Shown here: positions 15,216 to 38,942 of the stretch, piece after piece
How positions within the stretch are numbered: the stretch's first letter is position 1
How the letters are laid out: the number at the start of each line of letters is the position of its first letter
DNA from: Deltaproteobacteria bacterium
GTDB taxonomy: Bacteria; Myxococcota_A; UBA9160; UBA6930
Length of the DNA: 64,000 nt
Direction: 5' to 3'
Assembly: GCA_029261815.1 (NCBI GenBank)
Contig: JAJDAQ010000054.1
Coordinates: 155 to 64,154 of the forward strand
Program-made: the position numbers and the translations under genes
Notes under the pieces: generated by a model
The model's input: only the letters and a program-made list of their open reading frames with translations
Told to the model about the DNA's origin: nothing
The model's database searches: none

Positions 15216-15914
15216 GTGTCAAAACAGCAGCCCATCCTCGTCCACGGTGGACGTCCGATCGACAACATCGGGAACAAACTCCTGGTGTTGGGCTTTCGGC
15301 CGCACCGGGTCCGCACGCGAGACGAGGCCTTCGCGAAAGCCGACCAGCTGGGGTCGGAGCTCCGGGTCGCGCTCGTCGACGCGCTGGCACCTCCGGAGGA
15401 TGTCCGGGCGCTCGCCATGCGTGGCCTTGCCGTTGTCGTCGCTGGCGAACGACCAAGCGATGCGACCCTCAAGCAGCTTCGCGAAGCCGGCGCCCAGGTC
15501 GCCCTATGGGAACCCGTGGACGATGCCGCCGTGCAGTTCGTGCTCGGCCAGGCGGGCCTCTCGGACCGCGGCGCCGAGGGCCGACGTCATGGACGCGTCC
15601 CCACCGATCTCAAGGCCCTGGTTCGCGCCAAAGCCGGAAACCGGACGGCATCGGTGCATGAGATGAGCGAGAGCGGCGCGTACCTGGCGACGCTTCGCCC
15701 CCTCATGAAGGGTGCTGTCGTGCCGATCGAACTGCGCTTGCCCGACACCGAGGTCGAAGTCGAGGCCCAGGTCGTCTGGTCGAACGTGATCGGCAACCTG
15801 AGAAAGGACGGCCACCCCACCGGCATGGCCGTCAAATTCCTGGACCTCCCGGGGGACGTCCGCGGCCAACTGCTGCGCTACCTCGGGTCCCAACTGGAGC
15901 GCTTTCAGATCTGA
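15216..15914 (+). CDS. PilZ domain protein (probable c-di-GMP receptor) with N-terminal receiver-like domain
   Basis: ORF 15216..15914(+), with a GTG start after GGGAGAA. Has the RRHGR (RxxxR) motif and a downstream EMSESG ((D/N)xSxxG-like) motif. Confidence 0.7.
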   Translation: MSKQQPILVHGGRPIDNIGNKLLVLGFRPHRVRTRDEAFAKADQLGSELRVALVDALAPPEDVRALAMRGLAVVVAGERPSDATLKQLREAGAQVALWEPVDDAAVQFVLGQAGLSDRGAEGRRHGRVPTDLKALVRAKAGNRTASVHEMSESGAYLATLRPLMKGAVVPIELRLPDTEVEVEAQVVWSNVIGNLRKDGHPTGMAVKFLDLPGDVRGQLLRYLGSQLERFQI

Positions 15915-17519: not shown

Positions 17520-19553
17520 TCAGCGCTCTCGACGCGGCAAGATGCTCGAGATCATCCAGCGATCGCCACCCTGATGGATCACGGTCGCCGTCATCTTCGA
17601 TCGTTGTTCTCCGCTTCGCATCAGGCAGCTCGGCCCGGAGAAACGCAGACGCTGATCGAAATGGACGTAGACCATGCCGGGCGTCGTCTCGACACCCACT
17701 TCGGCGACCTGCAGATCGACCTCATTCGCGCACTCGAACAAGTCCTTCATCGAGTCGCGTTGTTGCGGGTTCATTGCCCAGACGCCTTCGAGTCGGCCGA
17801 AGTCTCGGCCGGAATAGGCTTCCTGGTAACGCTGCAGGATGGCGCGTCCCGCTTCGCCGGGATCGTTCAGGTCCGTCTCCGTACCGACGACGATCACAGG
17901 CCGCTTCGTATCCTTCTGGGCCTTCCAATGCGCCACTTGCCGAGTGGCCTTCTTGCGCCACTCATCGTCCTTGCGCGAGTGGGGATTGTCGGTGGAGTAC
18001 GCGTCCAGGAACTGCTGCCAGATCCCGGCCTTCACGCTCGAGGGCAAACCGCGTCCCTCATGACTCTTTGCTTCCGCAAAGACCTCACCCATCTCCTTGT
18101 CCCGTTCTTCCCAATGCCGCAGTTCGAGCTGCACGATCTGTTGCCGGTCGAGGGCCGTCACACGTTCACCGTCGTCGGTGGTATTCCAGTGCGCCACTCG
18201 CTCGGCGGCCTTCCGGCGCATCACGTCATCGACGTCCGTTCCGAGGATGTCGTTGCTGAACGTGTCGATGAAGCGTTGCCACATGGACGCCTTCACCGCG
18301 GCCGGCAGATCCCGCGCCTCGGTCTTGCGGCCGTCGCTGAACGCGACCTCCATCCGCTCGACGCCTTGTTCGCGCCGCTGGCGCGAAGCGTCCAGCAGAT
18401 CCTCGATGTCGAAGTTCGGGTCCTCCCATGACGAGGCCTTTCCCTGCCAGTGCTTGACCCTGGCCAGCGCCTCCTTGCGCAGGGTGTCGTCTTCCTTCGT
18501 ATGCGGATTGTTCTGTTCGTAGAGATCGAGGAAGCGCTGCCAGGCGATCACCTTGAGGTCGGGCGGATTGTTCGCGGCCTCATAGCTACGGGCCTGGGCC
18601 GCTTGGTGCTTCATGTCCTCCAGGCGAGCGGTCCAACGTCGGCGTCCTTGCGCCGACAGATCATCGAGCTGCATCCCCGGAGCACTCACGACCCCACGGC
18701 GAAAATAGAACTCGCCAGTGACGGAGGTATCGAACGAAGGGCGTTGGTCTCCCGAAGTCGCGCGGCCAACGTCCTTCATGACGTCGAGGAAGACCTCGTG
18801 CAGTTCGAGGCCTGGCTCTGCCAGCGTCTTGAGCAGATGGGTCGTGTAGAGACCGTTCTTGCCGTCGCCGTCGGCGGCGACCGAACCCGGCGAAGTCGCG
18901 TAGGCCACCAGCGTACCGTGGGGAGCCGGCGTGGGCGCCAGGCCGTCGGAGGCCGTACTGCGCCAGAGGCTCCGAAACGGATTGTTCCGGCAGGCATCGA
19001 GAATGACGATGTTGAGCCGGTTGCGGGCCGACGCGAACTCGTCCAGCACGCGCCCGAGTTCCACCGCCTTGTAGCGGACGTCGTTCTTCGCCTTGATCTG
19101 CCGGTCCGCGGCGATCGGGATCAGGTAGTTGGTGTTCTCGACCTGGACGCCGTGCCCGGCATAGTAGAAGAGGCCGACGCCTCCCTTCTTGAGCTTCTTG
19201 CCGAACGCCCGGATCGCATTCTCCATGTCCTCCTGGTCGGCGTTCGTCGCGAGCACCACCTCGAAGTCCAGTTTGCGGAGAACTGCGGCGATGCTCTTGG
19301 CATCGTTGACCGGGTTCGCCAGCGGACTCGTCGCGTAGCGACCGTTGCCGATCACGAGTGCGACGCGCTGCTCATCCTCGGCGCCATCGGCGTCCGCGGT
19401 CACGCGCACACCCCGATCATCGCGATCGAGCCAGCTCTCGGCGTGGACCGCCCCGCTCGTCGTCCCCACCACGGGCGCCAGTGCGAGCACCAGCATGGTT
19501 GCCGCGATCCTCGGCAGCGCTCGGAGACATCGGCGAGGGTCCGGGACGTTCAT
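17520..19553 (-). CDS. secreted caspase-family (peptidase C14) protein with three internal repeats and a C-terminal NTF2/SnoaL-like region
   Basis: ORF 17520..19589(-). The start is ATG 19553 (MNVPDPRR...), followed by signal peptide IAATMLVLALAPVVGTTSGAVHA. The His/Cys dyad motifs are FYYAGHG and VILDACRNNP. Three repeats of about 66 aa end in WQ(R/Q)F(L/I)D...RK.A..(R/Q)V.HW. Confidence 0.85.
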   Translation of the reverse strand: MNVPDPRRCLRALPRIAATMLVLALAPVVGTTSGAVHAESWLDRDDRGVRVTADADGAEDEQRVALVIGNGRYATSPLANPVNDAKSIAAVLRKLDFEVVLATNADQEDMENAIRAFGKKLKKGGVGLFYYAGHGVQVENTNYLIPIAADRQIKAKNDVRYKAVELGRVLDEFASARNRLNIVILDACRNNPFRSLWRSTASDGLAPTPAPHGTLVAYATSPGSVAADGDGKNGLYTTHLLKTLAEPGLELHEVFLDVMKDVGRATSGDQRPSFDTSVTGEFYFRRGVVSAPGMQLDDLSAQGRRRWTARLEDMKHQAAQARSYEAANNPPDLKVIAWQRFLDLYEQNNPHTKEDDTLRKEALARVKHWQGKASSWEDPNFDIEDLLDASRQRREQGVERMEVAFSDGRKTEARDLPAAVKASMWQRFIDTFSNDILGTDVDDVMRRKAAERVAHWNTTDDGERVTALDRQQIVQLELRHWEERDKEMGEVFAEAKSHEGRGLPSSVKAGIWQQFLDAYSTDNPHSRKDDEWRKKATRQVAHWKAQKDTKRPVIVVGTETDLNDPGEAGRAILQRYQEAYSGRDFGRLEGVWAMNPQQRDSMKDLFECANEVDLQVAEVGVETTPGMVYVHFDQRLRFSGPSCLMRSGEQRSKMTATVIHQGGDRWMISSILPRRER

Positions 19554-19628
19554 GGCGTTCTTCCTGCGAGCCATTCTTGATCGGTCCAATGGCCGGGCTT
19601 CAGGATACCCAATCCTTCCCTGGGGGGA

Positions 19629-20324
19629 TCAAGGTTCAGCGCAGAGCGATGCCATCGGGAAGGAGAGTCCGGCGCCCTCGCCGGCGGCCAACGAAGGCCG
19701 GCCGTCGGGTGCGGGGCCGTACAGGAGATCGAAGCCCTCTCCCTCGCCCGGATCGAGGTTCACCTGCACATGGGGCGCCAGCGGCATGGGACGATCGAAG
19801 CGCAGGACGGCCTGCCCCGTTTCGGCGTCGTAGACCACGAGATCGTGCAGGATGGGCTGATCGTCCCAATGCAGCACGAAGCGGCCGTAGCGCCCCGCCG
19901 TGGTCTGGATGACACCGATGGCGCCCCCTTCGCGCGGGCCCGTCAGGCGAATCCCGCCGAGCGCCAGGGATTCGAAAGCGCGTTGGCTCAGCTCACCGTC
20001 CAGGGTCGAAACGAAGCGCCCGGGCGAGCGGATCACGTCTCCGACGTAGAGCGCGAGTTCGTCGTCGACCGCGGCACAGTCCGGTTTCTCGATGCTGCGG
20101 CTCCCGAAGCCCTCCACACCCCGCCCACTCGTCGTCCAGGCTTGTCCCCAGCGATCTTCGGTTTCATAGGTGACGTAGTCCGCGAAGCCTTCCAGCGCAC
20201 CTTCGCCGACTGCGCCGCCCAACTCCTTCGCGAAGTCGCCAGCTCCGGCGCAACCGAGTGCAGCGACGGCCAGGGCCGACGCCGCCACACGCGCCGCGTT
20301 TCGAAGAACTGCTCGTTGTGTCAT
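19629..20324 (-). CDS. probable lipoprotein, unknown family
   Basis: ORF 19629..20393(-). The start is ATG 20324, after AGGAGGAAGG, and overlaps the upstream stop (ATGA). The signal/lipobox is ALAVAALGC. Confidence 0.65.
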   Translation of the reverse strand: MTQRAVLRNAARVAASALAVAALGCAGAGDFAKELGGAVGEGALEGFADYVTYETEDRWGQAWTTSGRGVEGFGSRSIEKPDCAAVDDELALYVGDVIRSPGRFVSTLDGELSQRAFESLALGGIRLTGPREGGAIGVIQTTAGRYGRFVLHWDDQPILHDLVVYDAETGQAVLRFDRPMPLAPHVQVNLDPGEGEGFDLLYGPAPDGRPSLAAGEGAGLSFPMASLCAEP

Positions 20325-20869
20325 CGACCTTCCTCCTGCGCGTCCGACGGGGCCACGATTTCCACGTGGGTGTCGGCCGCTTTGATGAGCCACTCGCCAT
20401 CGGGCGTCTGGATCGCTTCTCCGGATCCAGCCGCGCTGAGGCGCGTCGCGCCGGCGAGCCGTTCCACCTGGCCTTGCGGCGCCCCGCGGCGCGATGCCAG
20501 CTGGGTATAGTCGGAGCGCCGTCCTGAATTGACCTCGTCGACCAGGGCGCGATCCGTCGGTGCGACTGATCGAGGCGTCACATCGAGATAGCCGTCGGCT
20601 CGCTCGCCCACCGCGCCCGCCTGCTTGGCGCGGGCGAGCCGCTGGGACAGCGTCGCGTCGACGCTGCGGGTCGACAACGCCGCCTCACCGCGTTCCGAAG
20701 CGAGGGTCTTCCCCAGGTCGCCCTCCAGGGTCACGCGCACTTCATGGTGGAGGTCGATCCGAATCTCGATCGGCTCCGTCGCGATCTTCACCGTCGGTCC
20801 CTGACACCCGCTCGATGCCAGGGACACCAGAGAAAGGCTCAGACACACCGATACCAGCGAGGGCTTCAT
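20321..20869 (-). CDS. fused YnbE-like / YdbL-like (DUF1318) lipoprotein
   Basis: ORF 20321..20977(-). The start is ATG 20869, overlapping the upstream stop (ATGA). The lipobox is SLASSGC. The N-part GCQGPTVKIATEPIEIRIDLHHEVRVTLEGDL resembles E. coli YnbE as I recall it (CTPRIEVAAPKEPITINMNVKIEHEI). The C-part AKQAGAVGERADGYL...VNSGRRSDYTQLA...QTPDGEWLIK fits the DUF1318/YdbL pattern. Confidence 0.65.
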   Translation of the reverse strand: MKPSLVSVCLSLSLVSLASSGCQGPTVKIATEPIEIRIDLHHEVRVTLEGDLGKTLASERGEAALSTRSVDATLSQRLARAKQAGAVGERADGYLDVTPRSVAPTDRALVDEVNSGRRSDYTQLASRRGAPQGQVERLAGATRLSAAGSGEAIQTPDGEWLIKAADTHVEIVAPSDAQEEGR

Positions 20870-22656
20870 CCGGAGGCCGCCTCGGCTTCGAGGTCGGCCG
20901 GCACTTCGTCGAAGAAGATCACGCCCGAGTCGTCGTTGCCTGACACCACGGCCGGTGGCTTTCCACGACGAATCCATGTGATGGTGTAGTCATAGTCGTC
21001 GGTGTCCAGAGGAAGCGTGATCTCGATTTCCTTACCGTCGATCTCGTCGTTCGTCCGCAAGGCGACCTCGCGACTCCGGCGTCCGTCGAAGAAGTCGTAC
21101 TCGACGAGGACCGAGACCGCGCGAACGTCCTGCTCCTTGAGTAGCTCCGCATTGCCGACCAGCTCGACGGTGCTTCGTCGGTAGGGTGCAAAGAGATCGA
21201 TCATGTTGGTTTCGGTCGTCGTCCAGTCCGTCTCGAGCAGCCCGCCGCCCTTGAAGCTCCAGCGCGTCCGATAGTCGTACTGGAGCCACGCGTCGCGGTC
21301 GGCGTCGCCGTTCCAGCCGTAGATCATCCGGAAATCACGGCTCTCCTGATTGAAGGTGTTTCGGTCAACGACCACTTCCTCGAGCGTTTGCGCGCCGTTC
21401 TCGTGGCGCTTGCGCATCGTCACCGTCACGCTGTTGATGTACTTGTCAAACTCGGGAAGGATCGCGCCGTCGATCCCCACGTGGACCTCGCGCTGTTGAT
21501 AGGCAGGGCTCCCGATATTGACCGTGCGAAACCGGTTGCCATCCTCGCCATAGCGACGGTAGAGATCCCCGATGTTGGCGACCATTGTGACATAACGATC
21601 AGCGGGCTCCTGGTGGTTCAGGCTCATCGTGGTCGTGCCCGACTTCTTCAGTTCCTTCTTCTCGTAGTGAAAGGAAGCGCCGAGGTACATCGCGGAACCT
21701 CGCGCATCCCCGGTGGCGGCCTGCTTGACGAGCGGGTTGCCACTGGCCGCCATCACGCCCGCGATCATGCCCAGCCCTGCGTCGCTCGGCCCCTGCTTCG
21801 GCTTCGGCGGCGGCACCTTCTTGAACATCAGGTCCAGGATCTTCGTCATCGCCTTGTCGAGCAGCGCCTCGCTGCTGTCGTTGGCGCCACGGGTGACCAA
21901 CTGGATGGCGTTGTTCTTGCGCAGCTCGTCGAGCGTCTTGCTCACGTCCGCGTTGATCATCCCGGACAACGCCGAAACGCCACCACCCATCGTCTCGTGT
22001 TTCTGCACCTCGTCCCAGTTGACGATCAGATCTGCTTGATAGGCGTCCGTCAGGCCTGTGAAGGTCATCTCGAACATGATCGAGACGTCGGGCGTCGTCA
22101 TCTTGAAGCTCTCCAGCAGGAGCTTCGAAGACTGGGGATCGATGTCGAACGAGAACGCGACCTCGTTCCCTTCGAAGACCGGCGCGTTGCCCGTCGCTAG
22201 GACGCGGCGCCCGTCCTCTCCCTCGTCAGCCAGGACCGACGAGACCAGGACATAGCGGCCTTCTGTGAAGATGACAGGGCCCCGCAGGATCGCTTCTTCG
22301 TTCTCTGACGCCTGCTTGATTGCCCGCTGGGCCTTCTTGACGACCTCGGGGGGCGTGTCGTAGGTCGCCATCAGTGTGACGATGCCACCGCCCTCTGCGT
22401 CCGTGATCCCCTTGGTCGAGCCCGCGTCGCTAGGCGCATTCTTGACATAGCGGAGAAAGGAGAAGACCGGCTCGCCATTCTCGTCCTGAGCCAGCCGGGC
22501 GCTCTGCGGAATGTAGTACCAGGCATTGGGATCCGAGGCCGATGGGAACACCCAGAGATTCTCGACGTACGCACCACCTTCGAGACTGACCTGCTGCGCT
22601 TGCAAAGGAGCCGCGACCAGCAGCATGGCGACGAGCAACCAGGGGATTCTCTGCAT
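20866..22656 (-). CDS. secreted protein, YYxP-module paralog A (unrecognised family)
   Basis: ORF 20866..22656(-). The signal peptide is MQRIPWLLVAMLLVAAPLQA. N-module: WVFPSASDPNAWYYIPQ, FSFLRYV, GGGIV, GPVIFTEGRY, ATGNAPVFEG. C-module: FRTVNIG..QQREVHVGIDG, YINSVTVTMRKRH, FRMIYGWNGDADRDAWLQYDYRTRWSFKGGG. Ends in an acidic tail. Alignable end to end with paralog B. Confidence 0.85.
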   Translation of the reverse strand: MQRIPWLLVAMLLVAAPLQAQQVSLEGGAYVENLWVFPSASDPNAWYYIPQSARLAQDENGEPVFSFLRYVKNAPSDAGSTKGITDAEGGGIVTLMATYDTPPEVVKKAQRAIKQASENEEAILRGPVIFTEGRYVLVSSVLADEGEDGRRVLATGNAPVFEGNEVAFSFDIDPQSSKLLLESFKMTTPDVSIMFEMTFTGLTDAYQADLIVNWDEVQKHETMGGGVSALSGMINADVSKTLDELRKNNAIQLVTRGANDSSEALLDKAMTKILDLMFKKVPPPKPKQGPSDAGLGMIAGVMAASGNPLVKQAATGDARGSAMYLGASFHYEKKELKKSGTTTMSLNHQEPADRYVTMVANIGDLYRRYGEDGNRFRTVNIGSPAYQQREVHVGIDGAILPEFDKYINSVTVTMRKRHENGAQTLEEVVVDRNTFNQESRDFRMIYGWNGDADRDAWLQYDYRTRWSFKGGGLLETDWTTTETNMIDLFAPYRRSTVELVGNAELLKEQDVRAVSVLVEYDFFDGRRSREVALRTNDEIDGKEIEITLPLDTDDYDYTITWIRRGKPPAVVSGNDDSGVIFFDEVPADLEAEAASG

Positions 22657-24461
22657 CAGTTCTTCCCCAACGTGGCGCCAGCCACTTCTTCGCTCGGGGC
22701 CGGCTCCGGAAGCTCGTCGATGAAGATGATGCCGGTGCTGTCGTCGCCCTCTTCAATGACCTTGCCGCCGCGGGAGACGATCCAGGTGATCTTGTAGTGA
22801 TAGGCGTTGGTGTCGTGTGGCAGGGTCAGCTCGAGGGTCTGGTCCTCGATCGGTCGGTCGGCTCGGATTCGTAGCTTGTCGGTCTTTCTGCCCTCGAAGA
22901 ATGGATAGTCGACCTCGACCAGGACGGCGCGAACGCCCTGCTCTACCAAGGCTTCGTGATCGCCGTAGACCTTGACCACCTTTCGATGATATGGCGCATA
23001 CAGATCGATCATGTTCGCTTCGGCGAGCGTCCAGCCGGTTTCGTACTTGCCGCCTCCCTTGAAACTCCAACGCGTCCGGAAGTCGTACTGGAGCCAGGCA
23101 TCGCGGTCGTCGTCGCCCGACCAGCCGTAGATCATGCGGAAGTCGTTGCCCGCCGATTCCTTGAAGGTCTGGTGGTCAACGACCACTTCGCGGACCGTGA
23201 CGTTGCCATCCTGGTGCTGTTTACGGAGCACCGTCGTCACACTGTTGATGTAGGCCTCGAACTCCGGAAGGATCGCGCCGTCGATCCCGACGTGAATCTC
23301 ACGCTGCTTGAAGGCGTCGTCCGCGAGGTTGACGGTCTTGAAGATGTTCGGATCGTCCCCGTATTCCTCCCAGAGATTCCCGACGTTGAACCCGATCGTC
23401 GAAACGCGCGTTACCGAAGACATATGGTTCATGCTGAGCACCGTCTCGCCGCTGGAACGCGTCTCCTTCATCTTGTATCCGGCGCTCACACCCATTCCGG
23501 TGATCGGTTTGCGACCGTAGGCGTCGGTCTTCTTGTCTTTGCCGAAGTTCTGGATGGCGCCGAAGGCGCTGTTGTCACTCTCGTCGCTGCTCTGGTCGAT
23601 CGGGATCGGTTCGAACATCAGCTCGAGGAGCTGGTTGTGGACCTTGTCCAGCAACGCCTCCATGTTGTCGTTCGCACCGCGCGTCTTGAGCTCGACCGAC
23701 TTGTTCTGCATGAGCTCGTCGAACATCATGCCCATATCGCCGCTGAGGCCCGCGTAATAGACGTTGACCTCGGCCTTGACGCCCATCCGCTTGCTCTTGT
23801 GCACGTCGTCCCAGCGAATGATCAGGTCCGCCTCGAACGCATCGGTGACGCCTTCCACGGTCATCTCGAAGATGAGCGAGATATCGGGCGTCGCCATCTT
23901 CAGGCTCTCCATCAGGAGCGTGGCGCGGTCGGGTGGAAGGTCGAATGACAGCGCGATCTGGCTGCCCTCGAGCACGGGCGCGTTGCCGGTCGCAAGGAGA
24001 TGCCCCTCTTCCTCCCCCGTCTCGGTATTCACGATCGACGAGATCAATGCGTAGCGGCCCTCCTTGAAGATCACGGGGCCCATGAGCTTCAGGTCCTCGT
24101 TCTCCGGATCGAGCCTTCGGACAGCCCGCTCGGCCCGCTTTCGCACCTCCTCGGGTACCCCGTACGTGACCAGGAAGTGGAGGATCCCGCCACCTTCCGC
24201 TTCGGTGATGCCCTGACTCGTCGCGCCTTCGCTTGGCTTGTTGATCACATAACGAAGGAACGAGAACTGGGGATCCCCGTTGTCGTCCGGCACGATCCAG
24301 GAGTCGTTCGGAAGGTAGTAGTAGTGGTTCGGATTGGCGGCGGCCGGAAAGACCCAAAGGCCTTCGATCCGAGCTCCCCGGTCGAGCATGATCTGCTGTG
24401 CAGACAACCCGGCCGGGGCGAACACCCATAGGAACAGGGTCGCGAGAATCGTGAAACGCAT
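22656..24461 (-). CDS. secreted protein, YYxP-module paralog B
   Basis: ORF 22656..24497(-). The start is ATG 24461 (MRFTILATLFLWVFAPAGLSA signal peptide). Shares the motifs of A: WVFPAAANPNHYYYLPN, FSFLRYV, GGGILHFLV, GPVIFKEGRY, ATGNAPVLEG, FKTVNL..KQREIHVGIDG, FRMIYGWSGDDDRDAWLQYDFRTRWSFKGGG. Confidence 0.85.
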   Translation of the reverse strand: MRFTILATLFLWVFAPAGLSAQQIMLDRGARIEGLWVFPAAANPNHYYYLPNDSWIVPDDNGDPQFSFLRYVINKPSEGATSQGITEAEGGGILHFLVTYGVPEEVRKRAERAVRRLDPENEDLKLMGPVIFKEGRYALISSIVNTETGEEEGHLLATGNAPVLEGSQIALSFDLPPDRATLLMESLKMATPDISLIFEMTVEGVTDAFEADLIIRWDDVHKSKRMGVKAEVNVYYAGLSGDMGMMFDELMQNKSVELKTRGANDNMEALLDKVHNQLLELMFEPIPIDQSSDESDNSAFGAIQNFGKDKKTDAYGRKPITGMGVSAGYKMKETRSSGETVLSMNHMSSVTRVSTIGFNVGNLWEEYGDDPNIFKTVNLADDAFKQREIHVGIDGAILPEFEAYINSVTTVLRKQHQDGNVTVREVVVDHQTFKESAGNDFRMIYGWSGDDDRDAWLQYDFRTRWSFKGGGKYETGWTLAEANMIDLYAPYHRKVVKVYGDHEALVEQGVRAVLVEVDYPFFEGRKTDKLRIRADRPIEDQTLELTLPHDTNAYHYKITWIVSRGGKVIEEGDDSTGIIFIDELPEPAPSEEVAGATLGKN

Positions 24462-24512
24462 GAATCTGTCACCACCACGGTGTCCCTGCGGCTGCACAGG
24501 AGCACCGGAACA

Positions 24513-26765: not shown

Positions 26766-28615
26766 GAATCGTCCCCATCTGTCGGCGCAGGCTCCGGTAT
26801 TGGCTCCGGTGCGAGTTCTTCGGGTGGGACGAGGTACAAGTAGGTCGAGTCGAGGCCGGCCGTCTCGGCGTGCTCAGCACCCTTTTTCGAGTGCCATGTG
26901 ACACGCCAACCGACGTCCGTGCCGCGGTCATGATATACCGAGACGGTGGTCGTAGGTTCAGCATCTGCGACTCGGAGCGTCGCTTTCCGCTGGAGCTTGG
27001 GCTTTCCCCCGATCGGAACCGCAAAGTCCACGACTGCAGTGCGAATCCCATACTCGGCGAACTGATCGCGATCGGCGTCGATTTCGATGACTTCTTTCTG
27101 GAACGGCGGTGTCAGCGAAATCACCGGGTCTTCGCTCGGGATCCACTTTTCCTCGTCGCGGGGAATGTTCATGGTGGGGCGATCGCGAACGCTCCAGCGC
27201 ACCTGGTACTCGTAGCCGAGCCAGCTGGCATCGTCTTCGCCCAACCGGGGATAGGTGATCGCCTGCATGATCCCACCGTTCTTCACCTCTTCGTGTGTGA
27301 AGACCAGCGATTCGGTCTTGGTCGCTTGCGACCTGTCGGCGTAGACCTTTCGGAAATTCACCGAGACGAAGTTGACGGTGTCCTGGAAGGCGTCGATGTA
27401 GTCGCCATCGACCTGGAAGTGCACATCGCGCTTCTGGAAGGTGGTGTCGTCGAGGTTCACGACGCGGAAGTAACGCTCATCCTCGCCGTACTCCGAGTAG
27501 ATCCCGCCGAGGTTGCCCGACGTATCGAAGGGCACGCGGATGGTTGTTGAACGCGAAAGGTTGAGCGTGAACTCGTTGCGCGAAATGTCCTTGCGGTTCT
27601 TCAGGACGTACTGATTGTCGGAGATGTACTCCTGGTTCCCGGTCCCTGCGAAGAACTTCGCGAAGCCACCGCGTGACTGACGCCCCGCGAGCTGACCGCC
27701 CTCGACCGCCTGTTCCTTCGGCGGTGCCTTCGACCAGCCCATCTCGCTGTCGAACATCAGCGTGGTCAACTTCGTCGTGACGAGGTCCACGATGCCCTGC
27801 ATGTCACCCGAGTCGATCCCGAGGCCCTGGCTTCGGTCCATCACCTCGATGGTGATGTCTCCAGTCTTGACGAGTTCGTCGGTGATGTCGCGGAGCTGGC
27901 GCTTCTTGAAGCCCTTCTGATACGAGAACACGCGGCTGAAGTGCTCGTAGACGACGTCCATCTTCGCATGGATGCGTGCGTTGTAGGCCTTCACCTTGGC
28001 TTCGTAGTAGGCGGTGATCGAAACCGAGACGTCGGACGTGGGCGCATGGAAGGTGTCGAACAAGAGCGTCGCCCCCTCCTGGGAGAGCCTCGCAGCGACG
28101 ACGGCCTTCGAACCCGGCGTCAGCGGCGCGCGCCCCGACGTGATCAGGTTGCGCGTGAAACCACCCTCTTCCGTGTCGGTCAGGGTCGCAGAGACCACAC
28201 GGAAACCACCAAGCCCCTTCTCACCGTCCTCGACCGACTCCATCAGGGGAACCGGGCCGGCGATCCGGGCGCCGCCAATCTCCTTCTGCAACGCCTTCTC
28301 GAGGGACGCCTCCTCTTCGGGGAGGAGGCTGAGCGTCACCAGCGCATGGAAGATTCCACCGCTTTCCGCGTTGCCCGCCCCCACGAACTTGACGCACAGG
28401 AACTCGAGCGTCTCGCCGCCGTCCTTCGTCGCCAGACGTGGGTAGGTCGGCAGGTACCAGTAGAGGTACTCGTCGTCCGCGTCCTGCAGGAGTTGGATGC
28501 CGTTGACGATCATCCGCCCCTCGTCGTACTTCACCAATGCTTCCGTACTGGTTGCACCGCCGGACACCCAGCAGATGGCCAATGCCGTCGCGATCCAGAA
28601 CCTCGAGGGGCTCAT
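26762..28615 (-). CDS. secreted protein, YYxP-module paralog D
   Basis: ORF 26762..28615(-). The ATG follows GAGGAGGAAGG and overlaps the E stop (ATGA). The signal peptide is FWIATALAICWVSGGA. Motifs: EYLYWYLPTYPRL, LEFLCVKF, GGIFHALV, SGRAPLTPGS, FRVVNLDDTTFQKRDVHFQVDG, VNFVSVNFRK, YEYQVRWSVR. Ends in an acidic/Pro tail. Confidence 0.85.
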   Translation of the reverse strand: MSPSRFWIATALAICWVSGGATSTEALVKYDEGRMIVNGIQLLQDADDEYLYWYLPTYPRLATKDGGETLEFLCVKFVGAGNAESGGIFHALVTLSLLPEEEASLEKALQKEIGGARIAGPVPLMESVEDGEKGLGGFRVVSATLTDTEEGGFTRNLITSGRAPLTPGSKAVVAARLSQEGATLLFDTFHAPTSDVSVSITAYYEAKVKAYNARIHAKMDVVYEHFSRVFSYQKGFKKRQLRDITDELVKTGDITIEVMDRSQGLGIDSGDMQGIVDLVTTKLTTLMFDSEMGWSKAPPKEQAVEGGQLAGRQSRGGFAKFFAGTGNQEYISDNQYVLKNRKDISRNEFTLNLSRSTTIRVPFDTSGNLGGIYSEYGEDERYFRVVNLDDTTFQKRDVHFQVDGDYIDAFQDTVNFVSVNFRKVYADRSQATKTESLVFTHEEVKNGGIMQAITYPRLGEDDASWLGYEYQVRWSVRDRPTMNIPRDEEKWIPSEDPVISLTPPFQKEVIEIDADRDQFAEYGIRTAVVDFAVPIGGKPKLQRKATLRVADAEPTTTVSVYHDRGTDVGWRVTWHSKKGAEHAETAGLDSTYLYLVPPEELAPEPIPEPAPTDGDDS

Positions 28616-29898
28616 CCTTCCTCCTCTTCGTCGTCCACTCGTTCGAGCGGTGCCGACGTGATGTCCAGAATCGGAGCCCAGCTACCACGCTCGGTCCAGG
28701 CTCCAGTCGTGGTGACGCCGTCGCGCGCCGCGGTCGTGACCCGGTACCGGTACGGCTTGTCCATTCGGATGGCGACCGGGAAACGGAGCGTTCGGGCATA
28801 AAGGTCCGGTTGGCTGAACAGGAACTTGGCGTCGATCGGAACGCGGCGTCCGCCGACGGCCTCCGCCTCCAACTCGATCTTCGTGTAGAACAGATCCGGG
28901 CGTTGGCGATTGGCGAAGTCGTAGCAATAGACCTTGACCGCCGCGTAGCCGGGCGGCGCCTTCTCGTTGAAGTCGACACGTTCAACGAGTTCCGGCCAAC
29001 GTGCGACATCGATCGAGATCCCGGTCGCCCCCGCACGCACCATCTGGGATTCGACGGGCGCCTCGAAGGTCGCCTCGTCGAGCGAGAGATCGCCGGGCCG
29101 ATCCTTGCCGCGCGCCTTGCGGTCGAGCTTGCGAAGTAGCTTGGCGGCGACGCCGGTGGGTCGATCGTCGGCGATCGGAACGCCCTGGGCCCGTAGGTTC
29201 TCGATCAGGTCTTCTTCGATCTCGGACTCCGTAGACATCGCCGAGACCTGGGCGTGCTCCGCGCTGTGGACACCCTTGCTGAAGAACGCGTACGAGACAC
29301 TCAGCGCCACCTTCCCGCGGTTCATCATCTCGAGCAGGAGCGTAGCCGTGTGCGGGTCCATCGGAACCGTAAACACGCGCTCGCGCCAATAGGCATCTCG
29401 GCTCGTGCGGCCACCCTTCGAGCCGTCAGCTTCGAAATAGCCTTCCTCGACGACCTGGGGTTCGACGCCGCTCTCGCCGATGGGTGCGTAGGCCAGCAAC
29501 GCCTCGAAGCGGCTGATCGGCAACGGGCGAAGCTCGGCGCGCCCGAGGTTCTCGTAGGCGAGCAGTGCGCGGCGGAGGAAGCGAAGCTCGGCCGGTCCCG
29601 GTGCATCCATCCGCATGTGGAAGGTCAGCGTGTTGAGCGCACCGAACTCTCCCTGGTTTCCATAGGCGGCCGTGCCCGTGTAACGCATCTGCAGGAACCG
29701 GACATCGGGGCGCCCCGTCAGGTCGCGCACGATCTCGAGCCCGCCGGGAGCGAAATAGAACAGACGGCTGTCGTCGAAGTCCGGATAGGTGACGAACTTC
29801 CCAATTTGGCGCGGTGCGCTCAGATCCGGCGCGGCCTCGAGCGCCAGTGGCGCCAGAAACAACGGGAGGAGCAAGAGCATCAGGACTGACCGCGGCAT
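28612..29898 (-). CDS. secreted protein, YYxP-module paralog E (short; different C-terminal module)
   Basis: ORF 28612..29976(-). The start is ATG 29898, overlapping the F stop by 1 nt (TGATG). The signal peptide is MPRSVLMLLLLPLFLAPLALEA. The N-module aligns with A-D: TYPDFDDSRLFYFAPGG, VRFLQMRY, ELRPLP, RERVFTVPMDPHTATLLLEMM..VALSVSYAFF. The tail is DDEEEEG. Confidence 0.8.
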   Translation of the reverse strand: MPRSVLMLLLLPLFLAPLALEAAPDLSAPRQIGKFVTYPDFDDSRLFYFAPGGLEIVRDLTGRPDVRFLQMRYTGTAAYGNQGEFGALNTLTFHMRMDAPGPAELRFLRRALLAYENLGRAELRPLPISRFEALLAYAPIGESGVEPQVVEEGYFEADGSKGGRTSRDAYWRERVFTVPMDPHTATLLLEMMNRGKVALSVSYAFFSKGVHSAEHAQVSAMSTESEIEEDLIENLRAQGVPIADDRPTGVAAKLLRKLDRKARGKDRPGDLSLDEATFEAPVESQMVRAGATGISIDVARWPELVERVDFNEKAPPGYAAVKVYCYDFANRQRPDLFYTKIELEAEAVGGRRVPIDAKFLFSQPDLYARTLRFPVAIRMDKPYRYRVTTAARDGVTTTGAWTERGSWAPILDITSAPLERVDDEEEEG

Positions 29899-32009
29899 CA
29901 GGGTTCCGGCTCTCCCAGCGCGGATCTCAGGGAGGCGGAACCGAGCAGGTAGTCGAGCCTTCGTGACTCGAGCCACATCGACTCCCGGATACTCCCGTCA
30001 CGCATCACGATGTCGAGCTTGTACTCGTAGAACGGCTCCTTGGCGTCTCCTCGGTTCATCTCGGCATCGGTCAGGAACAGACGCGCGATCGGAACCTCCT
30101 CGCCATCCTCCTCCAATACGACCGCGGGTCGGGTCAGCACACGCGTGCGCTGTGGGTCGAGGAACTGGGAGCGCACGTGGACCAGGATCTGATGGGCCCC
30201 CGTCGACTCGAAGACGTCGCCCGTGGTGAACACGAGCTGCCGCGTGGAAGGCGGCGGCGGAATGAACTTCTCGGTGAAGACGAGATCGTCGCAGGGCTCG
30301 CAGTCGCCTTCGACCGAATACCGCACCCAGAGCAGCTTGGCCGTTCTGTCGACCCAGCCCGGAACCTGCTCGGCTTGCCAGATCACTTTGTCGCCCGGTG
30401 CGGCGACGGGGTCGCCGAGATCCCATGTCAGGATGACGGGTTGATCCTTGCGCAGCCCGTTGCCATCACTCGGCGAAAGCAGCAGGGCATGCAGGCTGTG
30501 CAGCCGGATCGGATAACGCGAGCCGTTGGTCCAGCCTCCGCGACGATCGAACGGAATGCGACCGAAGGTCTCGGGTTCGGCGACCGCGATCTGCAACGGG
30601 ATGGACCGCGAGAAGCGCGACTCCCCAGCCGCGTGCAACACGACGCTGCCATGGATTCCGGCGTCGGTGCGCAGGAGGCTCTCGACGTTGAGCAGGCGCT
30701 GGATGTCGGTGGCCCAGGAGACATCCATCGAACCGAGCAACCCGGAGATTCCCTGGACGCTGATCTTGTCGGGCGGAATCGTGAACTGGTTCTCGGCACC
30801 CCCAAAGAGTTCGACGTTCGAGCTCGAATCGAGCGGCAGCGGCCGCAGCTCGCGGAAGCGCATGCTGCCGTCGGGGTGGTTGCGACGCAGATACGCGCGC
30901 AAGAGATCCTCGGCGATCCGCAGTTCGGCGAGATTGACCCCGGCGCGCAGACGCGCCGCCATGAAGACTTCGCCGTCCGAGGATTGCTGTCCCGCCATCC
31001 CGTAGATGACCGTCATCGCGTACTGCTGCAGCGGATCCCACTGCAGGTCGTAGCGCTTGGGCGCGTAATAGAAGAGCCCGGTCTGCGGGTTCTCGTCCTG
31101 ATAGACGTGGTGGTCGATCTGCAGGATCTGTCCCTGGTGCAGCTCGATCTGACGATCGACGCGCAACCCCTCGAACAGGTTGATCGCTTGCAGCTGGCTC
31201 GGCCCGCGGATGTCGCGCATCTCGGCCAGCTTTTCGGCCGTGCGTTGCTGGCGCTCCGCGCGCATCTCGCCGATCTCCTCGACCTTCTCGCGCAGGATGT
31301 CGTACACACGACCCTGTTGCTCGACCTCGAGTTGTCGGCGGCGCTCCATGATCTGCATGCGTTCCATGCTCTCGAGGTAGGTCGCAAGCGGATCCGCTGC
31401 AGGCTCGGCGGCCGGAGTGGGCGCCTGCGTCGGATTGGGCGGTACTGGATTGAGGGTCGGCCGGCCGGTGTTAGGCCGGGTGTTGACGTTGTACGCGCCC
31501 ACGGCGGGTGCTGGTTTGTTGTACGTGGTGGTCGTCGGCGGTGGACTCGCCTGGACGGGCACGGCCACTCGCTGGGGAATGATCACGTTGGTCGTCGTGA
31601 CCGCGGTCGAGGGCTTGGCCGACAGACTCTGCGTGTAGACCGTGGCGCTCGGTCGGTAGACCAGCATCCCGGCCGACTGGGTTCGGGAGAGCGAAGTCGT
31701 CGCTAGGAGCTCGGAAGTCGTCGCCCGGCTTCGCACGTCCGGATTTGGGGCTGCTGGAGCCCCGACGAGCAGCTCTGATGCCGTCGCCGGCAACTGGGCG
31801 CTCGCGTCCACGCTCCGCCCCGAGACCAGCTCCCGGGCCAGCCCCACGGCTTCGGGCACGATCACCACGGTCTCCGCGAGGGCGGCGCCCCCGGTGGTCA
31901 GAACCAGCGCAGTCACAGCCAACCACCAGACGGTTGTCAGACGGGCGTCCGGGCGCGCCGACGGGGCCTCCCCCTGGTGTCCGGCTGCGTGCTCGCCCTG
32001 TCGCTCCAT
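29898..32009 (-). CDS. membrane-anchored protein, YYxP-module paralog F (S/T/P-rich stalk plus coiled coil)
   Basis: ORF 29898..32126(-). The start is ATG 32009 (MERQGEH), 5 nt after GGAGGAGGG. Has a TM/signal anchor TTVWWLAVTALVLTTGGAALA, a long S/T/P-rich segment and a charged heptad-like segment MERRRQLEVEQQ...AEKLAEMRD. The shared module then follows: NPQTGLFYYAPKRYDL, ELRPLPL. Confidence 0.8.
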   Translation of the reverse strand: MERQGEHAAGHQGEAPSARPDARLTTVWWLAVTALVLTTGGAALAETVVIVPEAVGLARELVSGRSVDASAQLPATASELLVGAPAAPNPDVRSRATTSELLATTSLSRTQSAGMLVYRPSATVYTQSLSAKPSTAVTTTNVIIPQRVAVPVQASPPPTTTTYNKPAPAVGAYNVNTRPNTGRPTLNPVPPNPTQAPTPAAEPAADPLATYLESMERMQIMERRRQLEVEQQGRVYDILREKVEEIGEMRAERQQRTAEKLAEMRDIRGPSQLQAINLFEGLRVDRQIELHQGQILQIDHHVYQDENPQTGLFYYAPKRYDLQWDPLQQYAMTVIYGMAGQQSSDGEVFMAARLRAGVNLAELRIAEDLLRAYLRRNHPDGSMRFRELRPLPLDSSSNVELFGGAENQFTIPPDKISVQGISGLLGSMDVSWATDIQRLLNVESLLRTDAGIHGSVVLHAAGESRFSRSIPLQIAVAEPETFGRIPFDRRGGWTNGSRYPIRLHSLHALLLSPSDGNGLRKDQPVILTWDLGDPVAAPGDKVIWQAEQVPGWVDRTAKLLWVRYSVEGDCEPCDDLVFTEKFIPPPPSTRQLVFTTGDVFESTGAHQILVHVRSQFLDPQRTRVLTRPAVVLEEDGEEVPIARLFLTDAEMNRGDAKEPFYEYKLDIVMRDGSIRESMWLESRRLDYLLGSASLRSALGEPEP

Positions 32010-32165
32010 CGAGGCCCTCCTCCTGCTCAGCTCGGCCGTGGTGCCAAGAGTGTCCAGATGTTGAAGCCCCGCTTCGATGGCAGCTTGCCGGACCCGAGGC
32101 GAAACCGAACGACGTCCAGGCTGCATGAAAGCGTTTTCCGTGCGCGGCCGCGAGCCCGGGCGAGT

Positions 32166-34856
32166 CTAATCGGAGGCATTGTCATCTCTGCGGTCTTCAA
32201 CGTCCTGGCCCGCCCTCGCGGCCAGCCGGTCGAGCAGGTCCGAGAATACCGGCAACTGGCGGACGGCTTCTGCGAAGGCGCTGCTGATGTTCACAGTCAG
32301 GTGGACCGGCCTTCCGTCCTGAAAATTCGGATTGCGGCCCTTCAACAGCACCCTCATCTCGGCGCCCTCGTCGAGTTGTCCGGACGCCTGGACCTCGAGT
32401 GACTCGTAGTGGAAGTCCCTCAGTGCCTCCATCAGGATTTCGCCCTGCGACCCGGTGCCCGCAATGGCAGCCGCGGACCCGGTGGGCGCATAGCGCAGCC
32501 GTCCGCCTCCGGGTGCCTGGAACCGGGCACCCCGCAGCACCGGCCGGCCCGAGACCAGGGCCAGCTCAAATCTGCCGGTGAGCCAGCCGGAAATGTCGAG
32601 TCCCTCGACGGGGGCAAGCGCGAGAAGCGATGCGATATCGAGATCGTCCGCTTCGAACGTGAGACCCTGGTCTGCTCTTCCGGACAGATCCAGCGTCCCC
32701 TCGATCCGGACCTCCCCGCCGGCCAGACGGAAGCGCCCCTCCCGGATGACGAGATCATCCGGCCCCGCCAGTGCCCACTGCAGCGCGCCCTCCTCGAGCA
32801 CGAGGTCGGGCGCCAACTCCACCCGCGAGAAGACGAGATCCTGATCGGGCGCGGTCTCCAGGGGATCGAAGCCGACCAGCCGTGCCGACGCCTGCAGCCC
32901 CTTCGCTCGGGTCGATCCGACGCCGACCGCGGCACGCCGGACGAATACCTGGATGTCGGGACGGAGCTGTTCGCCCCACTGCAGGGTTCCGGCGCCCTCG
33001 AGTTCGCCCGCCTCCACCTCGAGCACCTCGGCGAGGGCTGGAATCAGCGCTGCGAAGTCGACCCCGGTTTCGCCGAAGCGCACCGGAGCGAGTTCGAATG
33101 ACACACTCCCTTTTCCATCGACGAGCGAGTGGGCCCCGCTCCCCCGAAGCCGAGCACCCTGTGGCGAGCGAGCGTCGAACCCGAAGGTCGCTGAATCTGG
33201 ACCTCCGGAGATCTGCCCCTCCACCGCCAACTCGGCAACCACGGGGTTCTGACGGCCGATCCTCAACCGCGAGACCGAAAAGGGTCCGGAGAACTCGGAA
33301 CCCGACGGCGTCCAACGCGCGGCAACGGGCGCCTCGATGCCGGCCAACGCCACGTCCGCGAAGGGGAGTGCGAACTCGCCTCCGCTCGCCACGACCTGCG
33401 CTCGGATCTCTTCCGCCTCGCGAACGGCCTCGACACGCACGGTAGGCGTCGTCCCGCTCCACCAGGCCTCGCCGCGCAGGGGTCCCACTTCGAGTTCGAA
33501 CGGCTCGATCTCGATCGTCCCGGCGAGGCTTGTGTCCCCGTCCGCATCCGATTCAACCACGAGAGGACCCGCCGCGGGACTCTTCACGCATAACGATGCG
33601 TCTTCCCACAGCCGTGCCGCGCCGGCCAGGTCGCCGGCATCGACTTCGAGGGAGAGGCAGCGCCCCCCCGTATGGACGCCCAACCGCCGCCCGTCCCACT
33701 CGATTTCGAAGTCGCCCGCGATGCGCCCGGACGGGACCGCATCCGGTCGTCCGCTGCCCATGACCGCTCCCTCCAGGTGGACGTCCATTTGCGCAGCATC
33801 GGTGCTGATCGCGCCCTTCCCCTGGATCGCAATCGAACCGGTCCCGTCTGGAAACTCCCACGCATCCGCAAACATGGAAAACGCAGCCTGCGCAGCCGCT
33901 CCCGGCTCTGCGTCCCAGGCCATGTCAAGTCCGGCACGAAACGGAAGCGTGCTCTGGTCGGCACGAACCAGGGCCGCCTGCCCCACATCGACACTCAACG
34001 CACCGTCTCGATAGGTGGCGTCGACGACGGCTCGGGCACGCTCGATCTCGAGGACGGGATCGATTACGGCGACGACGGTTGCGTGGAGCTCCGCGAACGC
34101 GACCGAGTCAACAAGCGGGGTCTGGTTGAAGATCGGACCGCCGAGTTCGGCATGCGCGCGCAGCTCGGCGTCGACCGAGTCCACACCGGCCATCCCGAAC
34201 AGTTCGAGGAGTTCGCGCGGGAACCTGCCGACCAGGTGGGCATCGACGCGGGGCGATGCCAACTCGAGGGAGCCCCGCAGCCCGGGGTCCGAGGAAGCCT
34301 CGGGGGCATCTCGCAACGGACCCACCGGCCCGGCCTGGAACTCGAGATCTCCCTGCCAGTCGTTCGTGAGATCGGCGGCGCCGTGCGCCTCGATCCGCCA
34401 TGGATCCCCTCCCACTGTGGTCACGAAGACCAGGTCCTCCGCATGGATCGCACGCGGCAACCAGGAGTCGCGCAGGGAAAAACCCCTACCGACCTCGTCC
34501 GACTCCTCGCCCATGTCGAGTTCGTTCCCACACACGGACCAGCCCGCGGGAATTCGTTCGACGCGGCATCGAATACCGCGGACCGTTGCGCGGTCCAATC
34601 GGCGCGCCAGCAGGCCGCGGGCGCTCCACTGGAGACTCGCATGCTCGATCTCAAGGTCGCCGATCGAGGTGCGCGCCAGAGCAACGCCACTCCAGCCGAT
34701 CTCTTCGACCTCCACTCGCGTGGGGCCGAAGCCGTTTTGCTCCAACAACCCCGGGCCCCAGCGCTCGAGCGCGACTGCGATCATTCCAGGGAGACCGAGC
34801 ACCAGGAGCATGAGTACCGCGAGCGCAGCCGTGAGTCCTTTCACAGCACGCCACAT
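32166..34856 (-). CDS. ydbH: YdbH-like AsmA-family protein (intermembrane bridge-type)
   Basis: ORF 32166..34856(-), 896 aa. Has an N-terminal anchor LTAALAVLMLLVLGLPGMIAVAL and a long repetitive beta-rich body. The C-terminus GRLRYAP...EALRDFHYESLEVQASGQLDEGAEMRVLLKGRNPNFQDGRPVHLTVNIS fits my recollection of the DctA-YdbH domain. The operon also carries YnbE/YdbL-like sequence. Confidence 0.65.
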   Translation of the reverse strand: MWRAVKGLTAALAVLMLLVLGLPGMIAVALERWGPGLLEQNGFGPTRVEVEEIGWSGVALARTSIGDLEIEHASLQWSARGLLARRLDRATVRGIRCRVERIPAGWSVCGNELDMGEESDEVGRGFSLRDSWLPRAIHAEDLVFVTTVGGDPWRIEAHGAADLTNDWQGDLEFQAGPVGPLRDAPEASSDPGLRGSLELASPRVDAHLVGRFPRELLELFGMAGVDSVDAELRAHAELGGPIFNQTPLVDSVAFAELHATVVAVIDPVLEIERARAVVDATYRDGALSVDVGQAALVRADQSTLPFRAGLDMAWDAEPGAAAQAAFSMFADAWEFPDGTGSIAIQGKGAISTDAAQMDVHLEGAVMGSGRPDAVPSGRIAGDFEIEWDGRRLGVHTGGRCLSLEVDAGDLAGAARLWEDASLCVKSPAAGPLVVESDADGDTSLAGTIEIEPFELEVGPLRGEAWWSGTTPTVRVEAVREAEEIRAQVVASGGEFALPFADVALAGIEAPVAARWTPSGSEFSGPFSVSRLRIGRQNPVVAELAVEGQISGGPDSATFGFDARSPQGARLRGSGAHSLVDGKGSVSFELAPVRFGETGVDFAALIPALAEVLEVEAGELEGAGTLQWGEQLRPDIQVFVRRAAVGVGSTRAKGLQASARLVGFDPLETAPDQDLVFSRVELAPDLVLEEGALQWALAGPDDLVIREGRFRLAGGEVRIEGTLDLSGRADQGLTFEADDLDIASLLALAPVEGLDISGWLTGRFELALVSGRPVLRGARFQAPGGGRLRYAPTGSAAAIAGTGSQGEILMEALRDFHYESLEVQASGQLDEGAEMRVLLKGRNPNFQDGRPVHLTVNISSAFAEAVRQLPVFSDLLDRLAARAGQDVEDRRDDNASD

Positions 34857-37650: not shown

Positions 37651-37662
37651 CAGGAGATTCCC

Positions 37663-38931: not shown

Positions 38932-38942
38932 GTTCGTCGGCC

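Follow-up and report, generated by a model that had tools for sequence, protein, structure and literature searches.

A widespread cassette of exported paralogs lies within the ydbH-ynbE-ydbL operon of one Myxococcota lineage

Introduction

In Escherichia coli, YdbH together with YnbE makes up an intermembrane phospholipid bridge that is modulated by YdbL (PMC11126948, PMC13464000). By prediction, YdbH alone is not long enough to reach across the periplasm (PMC11126948); the C-terminal helix of YnbE is bound by YdbL, which keeps YnbE multimerization in check, and the ratio of YdbL to YnbE is critical (PMC11126948; PMC13464000). Here we analyze a 64,000-nt stretch of Deltaproteobacteria bacterium DNA (contig JAJDAQ010000054.1 of assembly GCA_029261815.1; approximately 65% G+C), referred to below as the window, in which a ydbH-like gene is separated from its ynbE- and ydbL-like partners by a cassette of six genes for exported paralogs, A to F. 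Genes for exported C14 peptidases (caspase homologs) are found at the same locus, one of them with a C-terminal DUF4384 domain, which reviews list as a domain partner of prokaryotic orthocaspases (PMC7475262, PMC8283722).

Results

Gene organization of the block

The block is a composite of a ydbH-ynbE-ydbL operon, an inserted cassette, a back-to-back caspase operon and a lineage-specific terminal caspase gene. An initial annotation of the window had described ten co-directional genes from 34856 to 17520, and ten minus-strand open reading frames (ORFs) are indeed present there, the ydbH-like gene first and an exported C14 peptidase gene last. The block is flanked by a divergent plus-strand gene that starts at 34916 and by convergent plus-strand genes that end at 17392. 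Junction distances were computed with start codons that give sensible signal peptides, and the overlapping starts and stops previously reported at most junctions proved correct, with distances of −1 to −4 nt. Within the cassette these are −1 for A/B, −4 for B/C, −4 for C/D and −1 for E/F, with D/E spaced by +15; after the cassette, F overlaps ynbE::ydbL by 4 nt, and ynbE::ydbL overlaps the following lipoprotein gene G by 4 nt. Just two junctions have real gaps, one between ydbH and A (+39), the other between G and the terminal caspase gene (at least +39). A consensus scan for terminators and promoters in the block gave no excess over chance.

The cassette is an autonomous, widely distributed unit

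To place the cassette among other genomes, we collected 78 loci by genome scan and searched their ORFs with the window proteins (counts refer to the 78 loci plus L001/L002; L numbers denote individual loci). Gene type C was present in 75 loci, D in 72, B in 68 and A in 56; in the same loci, ynbE::ydbL was found in five, ydbH in four and the caspase gene in one. The canonical order A-B-C-E-D-Z, which ends in a sixth type that we call Z, is exact in 21 loci, and most of the others are contig-truncated versions of it. The host taxa are Acidobacteriota, Eisenbacteria, Gemmatimonadota, Bacteroidota, Gammaproteobacteria (Arenicella, Nitrotoga), Desulfobacterota, Planctomycetota, Methylomirabilota and Myxococcota, and the Bacteroidota loci include one from a cultured carrier, Agaribacillus aureus BMA12 (L040).

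Approximately 70 of the 78 loci, from more than 10 phyla, carry the cassette with no ydbH, ynbE, ydbL or caspase gene nearby. No PF11739 gene lies within 10 kb of the cassette in the Pfam-annotated example contigs, and the gene clusters that recur in the flanks of the 78 loci include no AsmA-like family. The cassette is therefore an autonomous unit with a wide distribution, and its linkage to ydbH is lineage-specific. The central proposal of the initial annotation, that the paralog array is tied functionally to an AsmA-type bridge, is largely contradicted by these loci and is valid in one lineage only.

An exhaustive profile search returned 1571 family clusters at 50% identity (E ≤1e-3). The best 150 matches listed were all clear family members, and none of them formed a bridge to a known family. 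A tblastn search of plasmids with paralog C gave no match. The cassette loci L010, L014 and L015 are labeled Limnocylindrales, Armatimonadota and Dormiibacterota, and their similarity to the window is about that of the Eisenbacteria loci. This could reflect mis-binning, or a cassette that reaches lineages of uncertain envelope type, which bears on the need for an outer membrane.

Insertion into the ydbH operon of a single clade

The arrangement ydbH, A to F, ynbE::ydbL and G is confined to nine related metagenome-assembled genomes (MAGs), the window included. They are labeled delta proteobacterium, Myxococcota or, probably wrongly, Spirochaetales, and their proteins are 61 to 73% (F) and 48 to 69% (A) identical to those of the window. 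The local order is A-B-C-D-E-E′, as against the canonical A-B-C-E-D-Z, E′ being paralog F; the Z copy lies apart from the others, 9 kb upstream. A rearranged copy of the cassette was thus inserted into the ydbH-ynbE-ydbL operon in one Myxococcota lineage. Because this arrangement is stably conserved and translationally coupled within the clade, co-expression of the cassette and bridge genes has probably been selected.

In L166 (1-21968), ydbH is called as two genes (433 and 435 amino acids (aa)), and E, F, ynbE::ydbL and G are inverted relative to A-B, with a gene for an Lnt N-terminal membrane domain (LNT_N) between the two parts. Either the unit was truly rearranged or the sequence was misassembled.

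The YdbH-like protein and a YnbE::YdbL fusion

The first gene of the block (32166 to 34856, minus strand) encodes an 896-aa AsmA-family protein and occupies the same position in the relatives L163 to L166. Its identification as YdbH-like stands, since it passes the PF11739 model well above the curated cut-off (E = 8.5e-44; 151.1 bits, cut-off 26.3). The best-matching stretch covers residues 439 to 881 of the protein and positions 458 to 891 of the 893 in the model, and a single N-terminal hydrophobic segment at residues 12 to 30 (mean Kyte-Doolittle value 2.66) would act as the inner-membrane anchor. The ynbE and ydbL homologs are not immediately downstream: 12.3 kb with six tightly packed genes on the same strand lie between.

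Those homologs are joined in one 182-aa lipoprotein gene (20321 to 20869, minus strand). Its C-terminal half matches DUF1318 (PF07027; E = 5e-22; 78.6 bits, cut-off 27) and, over residues 78 to 163, the solved YdbL structure PDB 28oj_A (E = 1.2e-7). The lipobox is ASSGC, followed by QGPTVKIATEPIEIRIDLHHEVRV, and directly after the lipobox cysteine there is a weak match to the YnbE model PF13617 (Lipoprotein_19; E = 0.018; 15.2 bits, below the cut-off of 25.8; model positions 3 to 32 of 34); a relative's protein gives a faint PF13617 match too. In the alignment of five clade members, the cysteine and 15 of the positions that follow are invariant (C..PTV..AT..PIEI.I.L.HEVRV). A jackhmmer search started from the window protein matched ynbE ORFs of 57 to 100 aa directly 3′ of ydbH in 75 other loci (1e-13 to 1e-22), and the canonical 65-aa YnbE of the Myxococcota genome L151 can be aligned by eye to the same segment. 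The clade invariance, the jackhmmer matches and the L151 alignment identify the N-terminal segment as YnbE. With this homology on one side and the match to the YdbL structure on the other, the lipoprotein is a natural, in-frame YnbE::YdbL fusion. The earlier description of it as YnbE/YdbL-like holds as regards DUF1318 and homology to ynbE, and falls short in the PF13617 match, which is under the cut-off.

In this fusion, YnbE is not a small stand-alone protein of approximately 60 aa, and the YdbL domain, which has no signal peptide of its own, follows it through a linker of approximately 20 aa. The gene context of ydbH elsewhere was gathered with the YnbE::YdbL alignment (79 loci). In 75 of the 79, including L151, ydbH, ynbE and ydbL are adjacent, separate genes. 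A single-sequence scan of genomes for YdbH relatives found none and a word-based homolog search found only three, both searches being limited by the tools.

The next gene, G (19629 to 20324, minus strand), encodes a lipoprotein of approximately 231 aa from the ATG at 20324, with the lipobox LGC. It has no Pfam or NCBIfam match, and among the loci examined its homologs are confined to the clade that combines the cassette with ydbH. That G (as G254) is a diverged copy of accessory genes found elsewhere was ruled out (hhalign probability ≤0.6%).

It may be asked whether the paralogs are subunits, extensions or cargo of an enlarged YdbH-type bridge, so that the cassette would work only together with an AsmA-like protein. 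The nine MAGs that hold the cassette between ydbH and ynbE::ydbL with overlapping junctions are consistent with this, as is the fusion of ynbE and ydbL and the addition of G in the same clade, by which the bridge genes changed along with the insertion; in E. coli, moreover, YdbH alone is predicted not to cross the periplasm, being too short (PMC11126948). Set against these points, approximately 70 loci in over 10 phyla lack genes for YdbH, YnbE and YdbL over a distance of 10 kb, and AsmA-like families are missing from the recurrent gene clusters in the flanks, although a partner elsewhere in those genomes is possible. Foldseek also found no match to beta-taco or repeating beta-groove structures. 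We regard this explanation as unlikely.

An exported caspase operon is the conserved neighbor

The last gene of the block (17520 to 19589, minus strand) encodes, as had been proposed, a secreted C14 peptidase: the product matches PF00656 (E = 2.3e-39), has a signal peptide and contains the His and Cys motifs YAGHG and LDACR. It is not a conserved member of the unit. Its position is taken by a LysR gene in L082 and by an AMP-binding gene in L083, and in none of the loci was a homolog found downstream of G, so the suggestion that this caspase matures the paralog set cannot be upheld. Residues from approximately 340 to 560, after the C14 domain, comprise three repeats of approximately 32 aa (WQRF.D.....N.....DD..R..A..RV.HW) with no Pfam match.

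A second exported C14 peptidase is encoded by the divergent gene at 34916 to 37144 (plus strand). It has a signal peptide, a PF00656 match (E = 4e-25) with an intact dyad, His in YSGHG and Cys in LDSCHSG, and a C-terminal DUF4384 domain (PF14326; E = 1.5e-12). The genes that follow on the same strand encode a 169-aa lipoprotein (37141 to 37650), which overlaps the caspase gene by an ATGA and has homologs in L163 to L166; a 422-aa DUF4384 protein (37663 to 38931; PF14326, E = 2e-10), kept in L163 to L166; and a 454-aa CHASE2-domain membrane protein (38943 to 40307; PF05226, E = 2.5e-23), present in L163 and L165. This operon (34916-40307) diverges from ydbH over a spacer of 59 bp, and it adjoins ydbH in all five relatives with upstream sequence (L065, L163 to L166). 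A Z-type paralog lies in or beside the caspase operon in L164 to L166, and inside it in L165 and L166. The C14+DUF4384 gene is the conserved partner of the unit, and the idea of a protease partner survives with a different gene from the one first named.

A third C14 gene in the window (56160-58916, plus strand) encodes a 918-aa protein in which the peptidase is fused to WD40 repeats. As there are three C14 genes in 64 kb, a single caspase adjacency carries little weight.

Another account would be that the cassette came to lie in the ydbH operon by chance, was inherited by the clade and is functionally unrelated to both YdbH-YnbE and the caspase operon. The patchy cross-phylum distribution at 33 to 48% identity would fit horizontal transfer, the linkage could derive from one event, the genome is rich in caspases, and the unit is already rearranged in L166. 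However, the arrangement persists down to 48% identity in protein A with stop/start overlaps kept at both boundaries of the inserted block, the Z paralog stays beside the caspase operon across the clade, within it in two relatives, and the ynbE::ydbL fusion co-occurs with the insertion. On this evidence chance placement seems improbable to us.

Sequence relations and modeled structure of the paralogs

The six cassette genes are paralogous, as previously claimed, although in grades: C to F along their full length, B in part, and A chiefly through B. All are on the minus strand. Paralog A (29898 to 32126) is a 742-aa ORF, for which the public gene call is 703 aa from 32009. It consists of an N-terminal hydrophobic segment, a linker of approximately 260 aa rich in Pro, Thr, Ser and Ala, a coiled coil, the shared core and a C-terminal beta domain, and this combination of linker and coiled coil is kept across the A family. 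The possibility that A is a TonB-type inner-membrane anchor was considered and dropped: the hydrophobic segment of the A family is at the extreme N terminus and could equally be a cleavable signal peptide. Paralog B (28612 to 29898; 428 aa from the ATG at 29898) has a signal peptide, the shared N-terminal core and a short C-terminal part. Paralog C (26762 to 28615; 617 aa) matches the C-type hidden Markov model (HMM) with E = 3e-276 and aligns with E, F and D by BLASTP at 1e-20 to 1e-42. Paralog D (24513 to 26765; 750 aa) matches the D-type HMM with E = 2.5e-247. Paralog E (22656 to 24497; 613 aa) is the fourth-gene type of the canonical cassette (E-type HMM, E = 1e-238) and is 48% identical to paralog F (20866 to 22656; 596 aa), a second copy of that type.

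Homology over the full length unites C, D, E and F (BLASTP 1e-25 to 0; hhalign 100%). B is homologous to the C, D, E and Z types over the first 200 aa or so only (hhalign 97.5 to 99.1%), and A is joined to the family mainly via B (hhalign 88.7%, E = 2.6e-6) and the core [FYW][FYW][FYW]xP...F.F..Y. N-terminal hydrophobic signal sequences of the ordinary type, e.g., LQAQQ, are found on all paralogs. The seventh paralog of the window, Z (43766 to 46993, minus strand; 1075 aa), which lies outside the range first described, belongs to the sixth-gene type (hhalign 100%, E = 6e-116; HMM, E = 1.8e-196) and has an insert of approximately 480 aa, made up of coiled coil and Pro/Thr repeats, in the variable loop. 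HMMs of all six types found no further family members in the window. Within this low-complexity insert of the Z gene, a 42-bp tandem unit at 45341-45586 (5.9 copies, 95% matches) encodes TASPTPPTPTPPQR.

We found that the paralogs lie outside any named family, as the initial annotation had suspected. Pfam and NCBIfam were run on all ten block proteins, and A to F had no match. Pfam searches of 70 diverse family members gave only sporadic matches of single members, for example, PAN and TPR; a family profile searched against PDB sequences gave no match at E ≤10; and the PADLOC and PHROGs models did not match A to F or G, the caspase alone being matched.

An AlphaFold2 model of F (mean predicted local distance difference test score (pLDDT) 81.7) contains an N-terminal domain, residues 20 to 365, and two C-terminal beta-sandwich domains. 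In the N-domain model, two strands of approximately 23 residues stand around a poorly predicted Gly/Ala-rich insert; modeled alone, this domain has a mean pLDDT of 70. Foldseek searches of the PDB with the full F model returned only Ig, FnIII and macroglobulin-type matches at template modeling (TM) scores ≤0.16, BFVD was equally generic, and the best PDB match of the N-domain model alone had E = 0.028. The residues invariant across the family are mostly Gly, Pro, Trp and Tyr, with no His or Cys among them, which points to the paralogs being structural proteins rather than enzymes.

Structural subunits of this kind might form a surface fiber or pilus, for which a protease would prepare them to exchange strands. 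The analogy is with the type V (Fim/Mfa) pili, in whose maturation a clan CD cysteine peptidase (gingipain) takes part. The five to seven paralogs per operon with tandem beta-sandwich domains, the long Pro/Thr-rich spacers in A and Z, which resemble those of surface proteins, and the clan CD peptidase partner at this locus, which parallels gingipain, would all suit such a fiber, and the tip pilin Mfa3 (5nf4_A) has the lowest root mean square deviation among the Foldseek matches (8.5 Å over 269 columns; probability 0.96, E = 4.3e-3). Yet the TM scores, normalized to the query, do not exceed 0.16, the large N-domain has no pilin counterpart, the signal peptides are ordinary, whereas type V pilins require those of lipoproteins, and neither an usher nor another export component is encoded. 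We consider a pilus very unlikely.

Putative peptidase partners in other phyla

Clustering of the ORFs that flank the 78 loci revealed accessory families. One family of exported proteins of approximately 480 aa is spread over many phyla; in 25 loci its gene comes immediately after Z, at times as two or three copies in tandem. The motif HExxHT...YG.D..H..E is present in 20 of 28 copies, and one member has a weak match to Aspzincin_M35 (E = 0.0026). Tandem copies downstream of Z occur in L039 (14977-19517) and L015 (7629-12226), and also in L029, L033 and L070. The HExxH motif is absent from all three L039 copies and from one of two in L029, and some copies may be inactive. A second exported family, of approximately 250 aa, is located inside the cassette in 13 Bacteroidota loci. 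Its motif GKTGH...FNC[ST]DF has the His-then-Cys order of permuted papain-like enzymes, and one member matches NlpC/P60 weakly (E = 0.012). By motif and by these single weak Pfam matches, both families are putative peptidases. Since three unrelated putative peptidase types are attached to the cassette in different lineages, proteolysis is probably part of the way in which it works.

Recurrent peptidase partners and a fixed order of paralogs would also fit a multi-component, protease-activated toxin that forms pores or attacks membranes, assembled stepwise on a target membrane in the manner of the complement membrane attack complex. The two strands of approximately 23 residues in the N-domain model flank a low-confidence, helical Gly/Ala-rich insert, glycine-zipper-like hydrophobic runs are found in that insert in some homologs, and a two-partner secretion system is nearby in the window. 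Against this, MACPF/CDC, aerolysin and other toxins were unmatched, both by Pfam on the window proteins and 70 family members and by Foldseek with the full and N-domain models. The variable insert has no consistent amphipathic beta pattern; that of D is acidic, and that of Z is a spacer rich in Pro and Thr. The cassette contains no dedicated secretion gene, the Bacteroidota members lack the C-terminal domain of the type 9 secretion system, and the plasmid search gave no match. A toxin of this kind is in our estimate quite unlikely.

Other genes in the window

Between the Z paralog and the CHASE2 gene, a minus-strand gene at 41199-43127 encodes a 642-aa protein of which only an Lnt N-terminal membrane domain is recognized (PF20154; E = 9e-8). 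LNT_N genes are also found beside the unit in L163 and within the rearranged unit of L166. It is conceivable that the LNT_N protein acylates the three local lipoproteins. At 49417-56037 (plus strand), a two-partner secretion (TPS) pair, TpsB (ShlB/POTRA_2; 566 aa) and TpsA (1309 aa, with a TPS domain), is encoded after an OmpA-family gene. Downstream of the block, on the opposite strand, genes for a PilZ-domain protein (15216-15914, plus strand) and a DUF3604 protein (11107-13077, plus strand) have no evident link to it.

Discussion

The explanation that we favor, by a modest balance of probability, is that the paralogs form an extracytoplasmic hetero-oligomer that is matured by a peptidase and, in this lineage, is co-expressed with the lipid bridge. 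The paralogs, roughly one per type, would assemble in the periplasm or at the outer membrane. A hetero-oligomer is suggested by the single copy of each type, the fixed order, the translational coupling, the shared N-terminal core, which is accompanied in most paralogs by two Ig-like C-terminal domains, and the lack of conserved catalytic residues. A dedicated exported peptidase would mature the paralogs: one of the HExxH family, one of the His..Cys papain-like family in Bacteroidota, or an orthocaspase at this locus. Proteolytic maturation is probably part of the assembly, because different lineages attach different putative exported peptidases. In this Myxococcota lineage the assembly would be made from the same transcript as the YdbH-YnbE bridge, which suggests, in place of a role for the paralogs as parts of the bridge, that it is coordinated with the delivery of phospholipids to the outer membrane.

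Several points weigh against this explanation. The function, with the oligomer, its location and the proteolytic step, is inferred from gene content, and no structural match was informative. The peptidase assignments consist of motifs plus single weak Pfam matches, the HExxH motif is missing in 8 of the 28 copies of the family of approximately 480 aa, and many cassette loci have no peptidase in the sequence available. The link to ydbH may go back to a single insertion inherited by one clade and would then amount to a single observation in evolutionary terms. The N-domain model is of moderate quality (pLDDT 70), and a known fold could consequently have been missed in the Foldseek searches of the PDB and BFVD.

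A bolder form of the hetero-oligomer explanation, which we put forward tentatively and consider doubtful as a whole, is that A-B-C-E-D-Z is an undescribed envelope machine of seven paralogs with a new fold, matured by a dedicated exported peptidase and widespread in environmental diderms (Acidobacteriota, Bacteroidota, Gemmatimonadota, Eisenbacteria, Myxococcota and some Gammaproteobacteria). In Myxococcota it would be wired to both the YdbH-YnbE bridge and an orthocaspase/CHASE2 sensor module.

With six or seven genes and approximately 12 kb per genome, kept in order over more than 10 phyla, the cassette is a sizeable portion of the envelope biology of soil and sediment bacteria that lacks annotation. 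The locus also offers two natural experiments. The YnbE::YdbL fusion would fix a ratio that needs balance in E. coli, and a whole lineage has the lipid bridge in one operon with what would be a large exported assembly, with an exported caspase operon at a distance of 59 bp. From either one might learn what AsmA-like bridges are coordinated with outside E. coli. To our knowledge, very few substrates of prokaryotic orthocaspases are known, and the paralogs are a candidate substrate set for the exported ones.

Comparison with known systems

As had been anticipated in the initial annotation, topical literature searches found no described system of this composition, and four known systems invite comparison with it. 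The closest is ydbH-ynbE-ydbL of E. coli. The locus shares with it the N-terminal anchor and PF11739 domain, the YnbE-like segment after a lipidated Cys, the YdbL domain and the order ydbH, ynbE, ydbL. It differs in the six unrelated genes for exported proteins, 12.3 kb in all, between ydbH and its partners, and in the extra lipoprotein gene G after ynbE::ydbL. YdbL is predicted here to be tethered 1:1 to YnbE and lipid-anchored, whereas in E. coli it is free in the periplasm and its ratio to YnbE matters (PMC11126948). A natural YnbE-YdbL fusion is not mentioned in PMC11126948 or PMC13464000.

The second caspase, with its C14 His-Cys dyad and DUF4384 domain and the DUF4384 and CHASE2 genes that follow, is like prokaryotic orthocaspases with DUF4384 and CHASE2 partners. 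Unlike in those systems, it is exported, conserved back to back with the ydbH operon, and in relatives shares its operon with a Z-type paralog; topical literature searches found no description of a link between an orthocaspase and the ydbH operon or a Z-type paralog.

In common with the type V pili (FimA-E, Mfa1-5), the cassette groups about five paralogous genes in an operon, their exported products having beta-sandwich domains in tandem, and there is a weak Foldseek match to Mfa3. In contrast to type V pilins, the paralogs have no lipoprotein signals, no sequence similarity to pilins and a large extra N-domain that resembles nothing in the PDB; the pili belong to Bacteroidota, and the cassette is spread far beyond that phylum. 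The complement membrane attack complex and bicomponent toxins are similar in keeping a set of diverged paralogs together, a trait suggestive of an ordered hetero-oligomer, and in that a protease partner recurs. They differ in that MACPF/CDC and aerolysin signatures are absent from the cassette by sequence or fold. What appears to be new at this locus is an undescribed multi-paralog envelope cassette combined with an unusual variant of the YdbH system.

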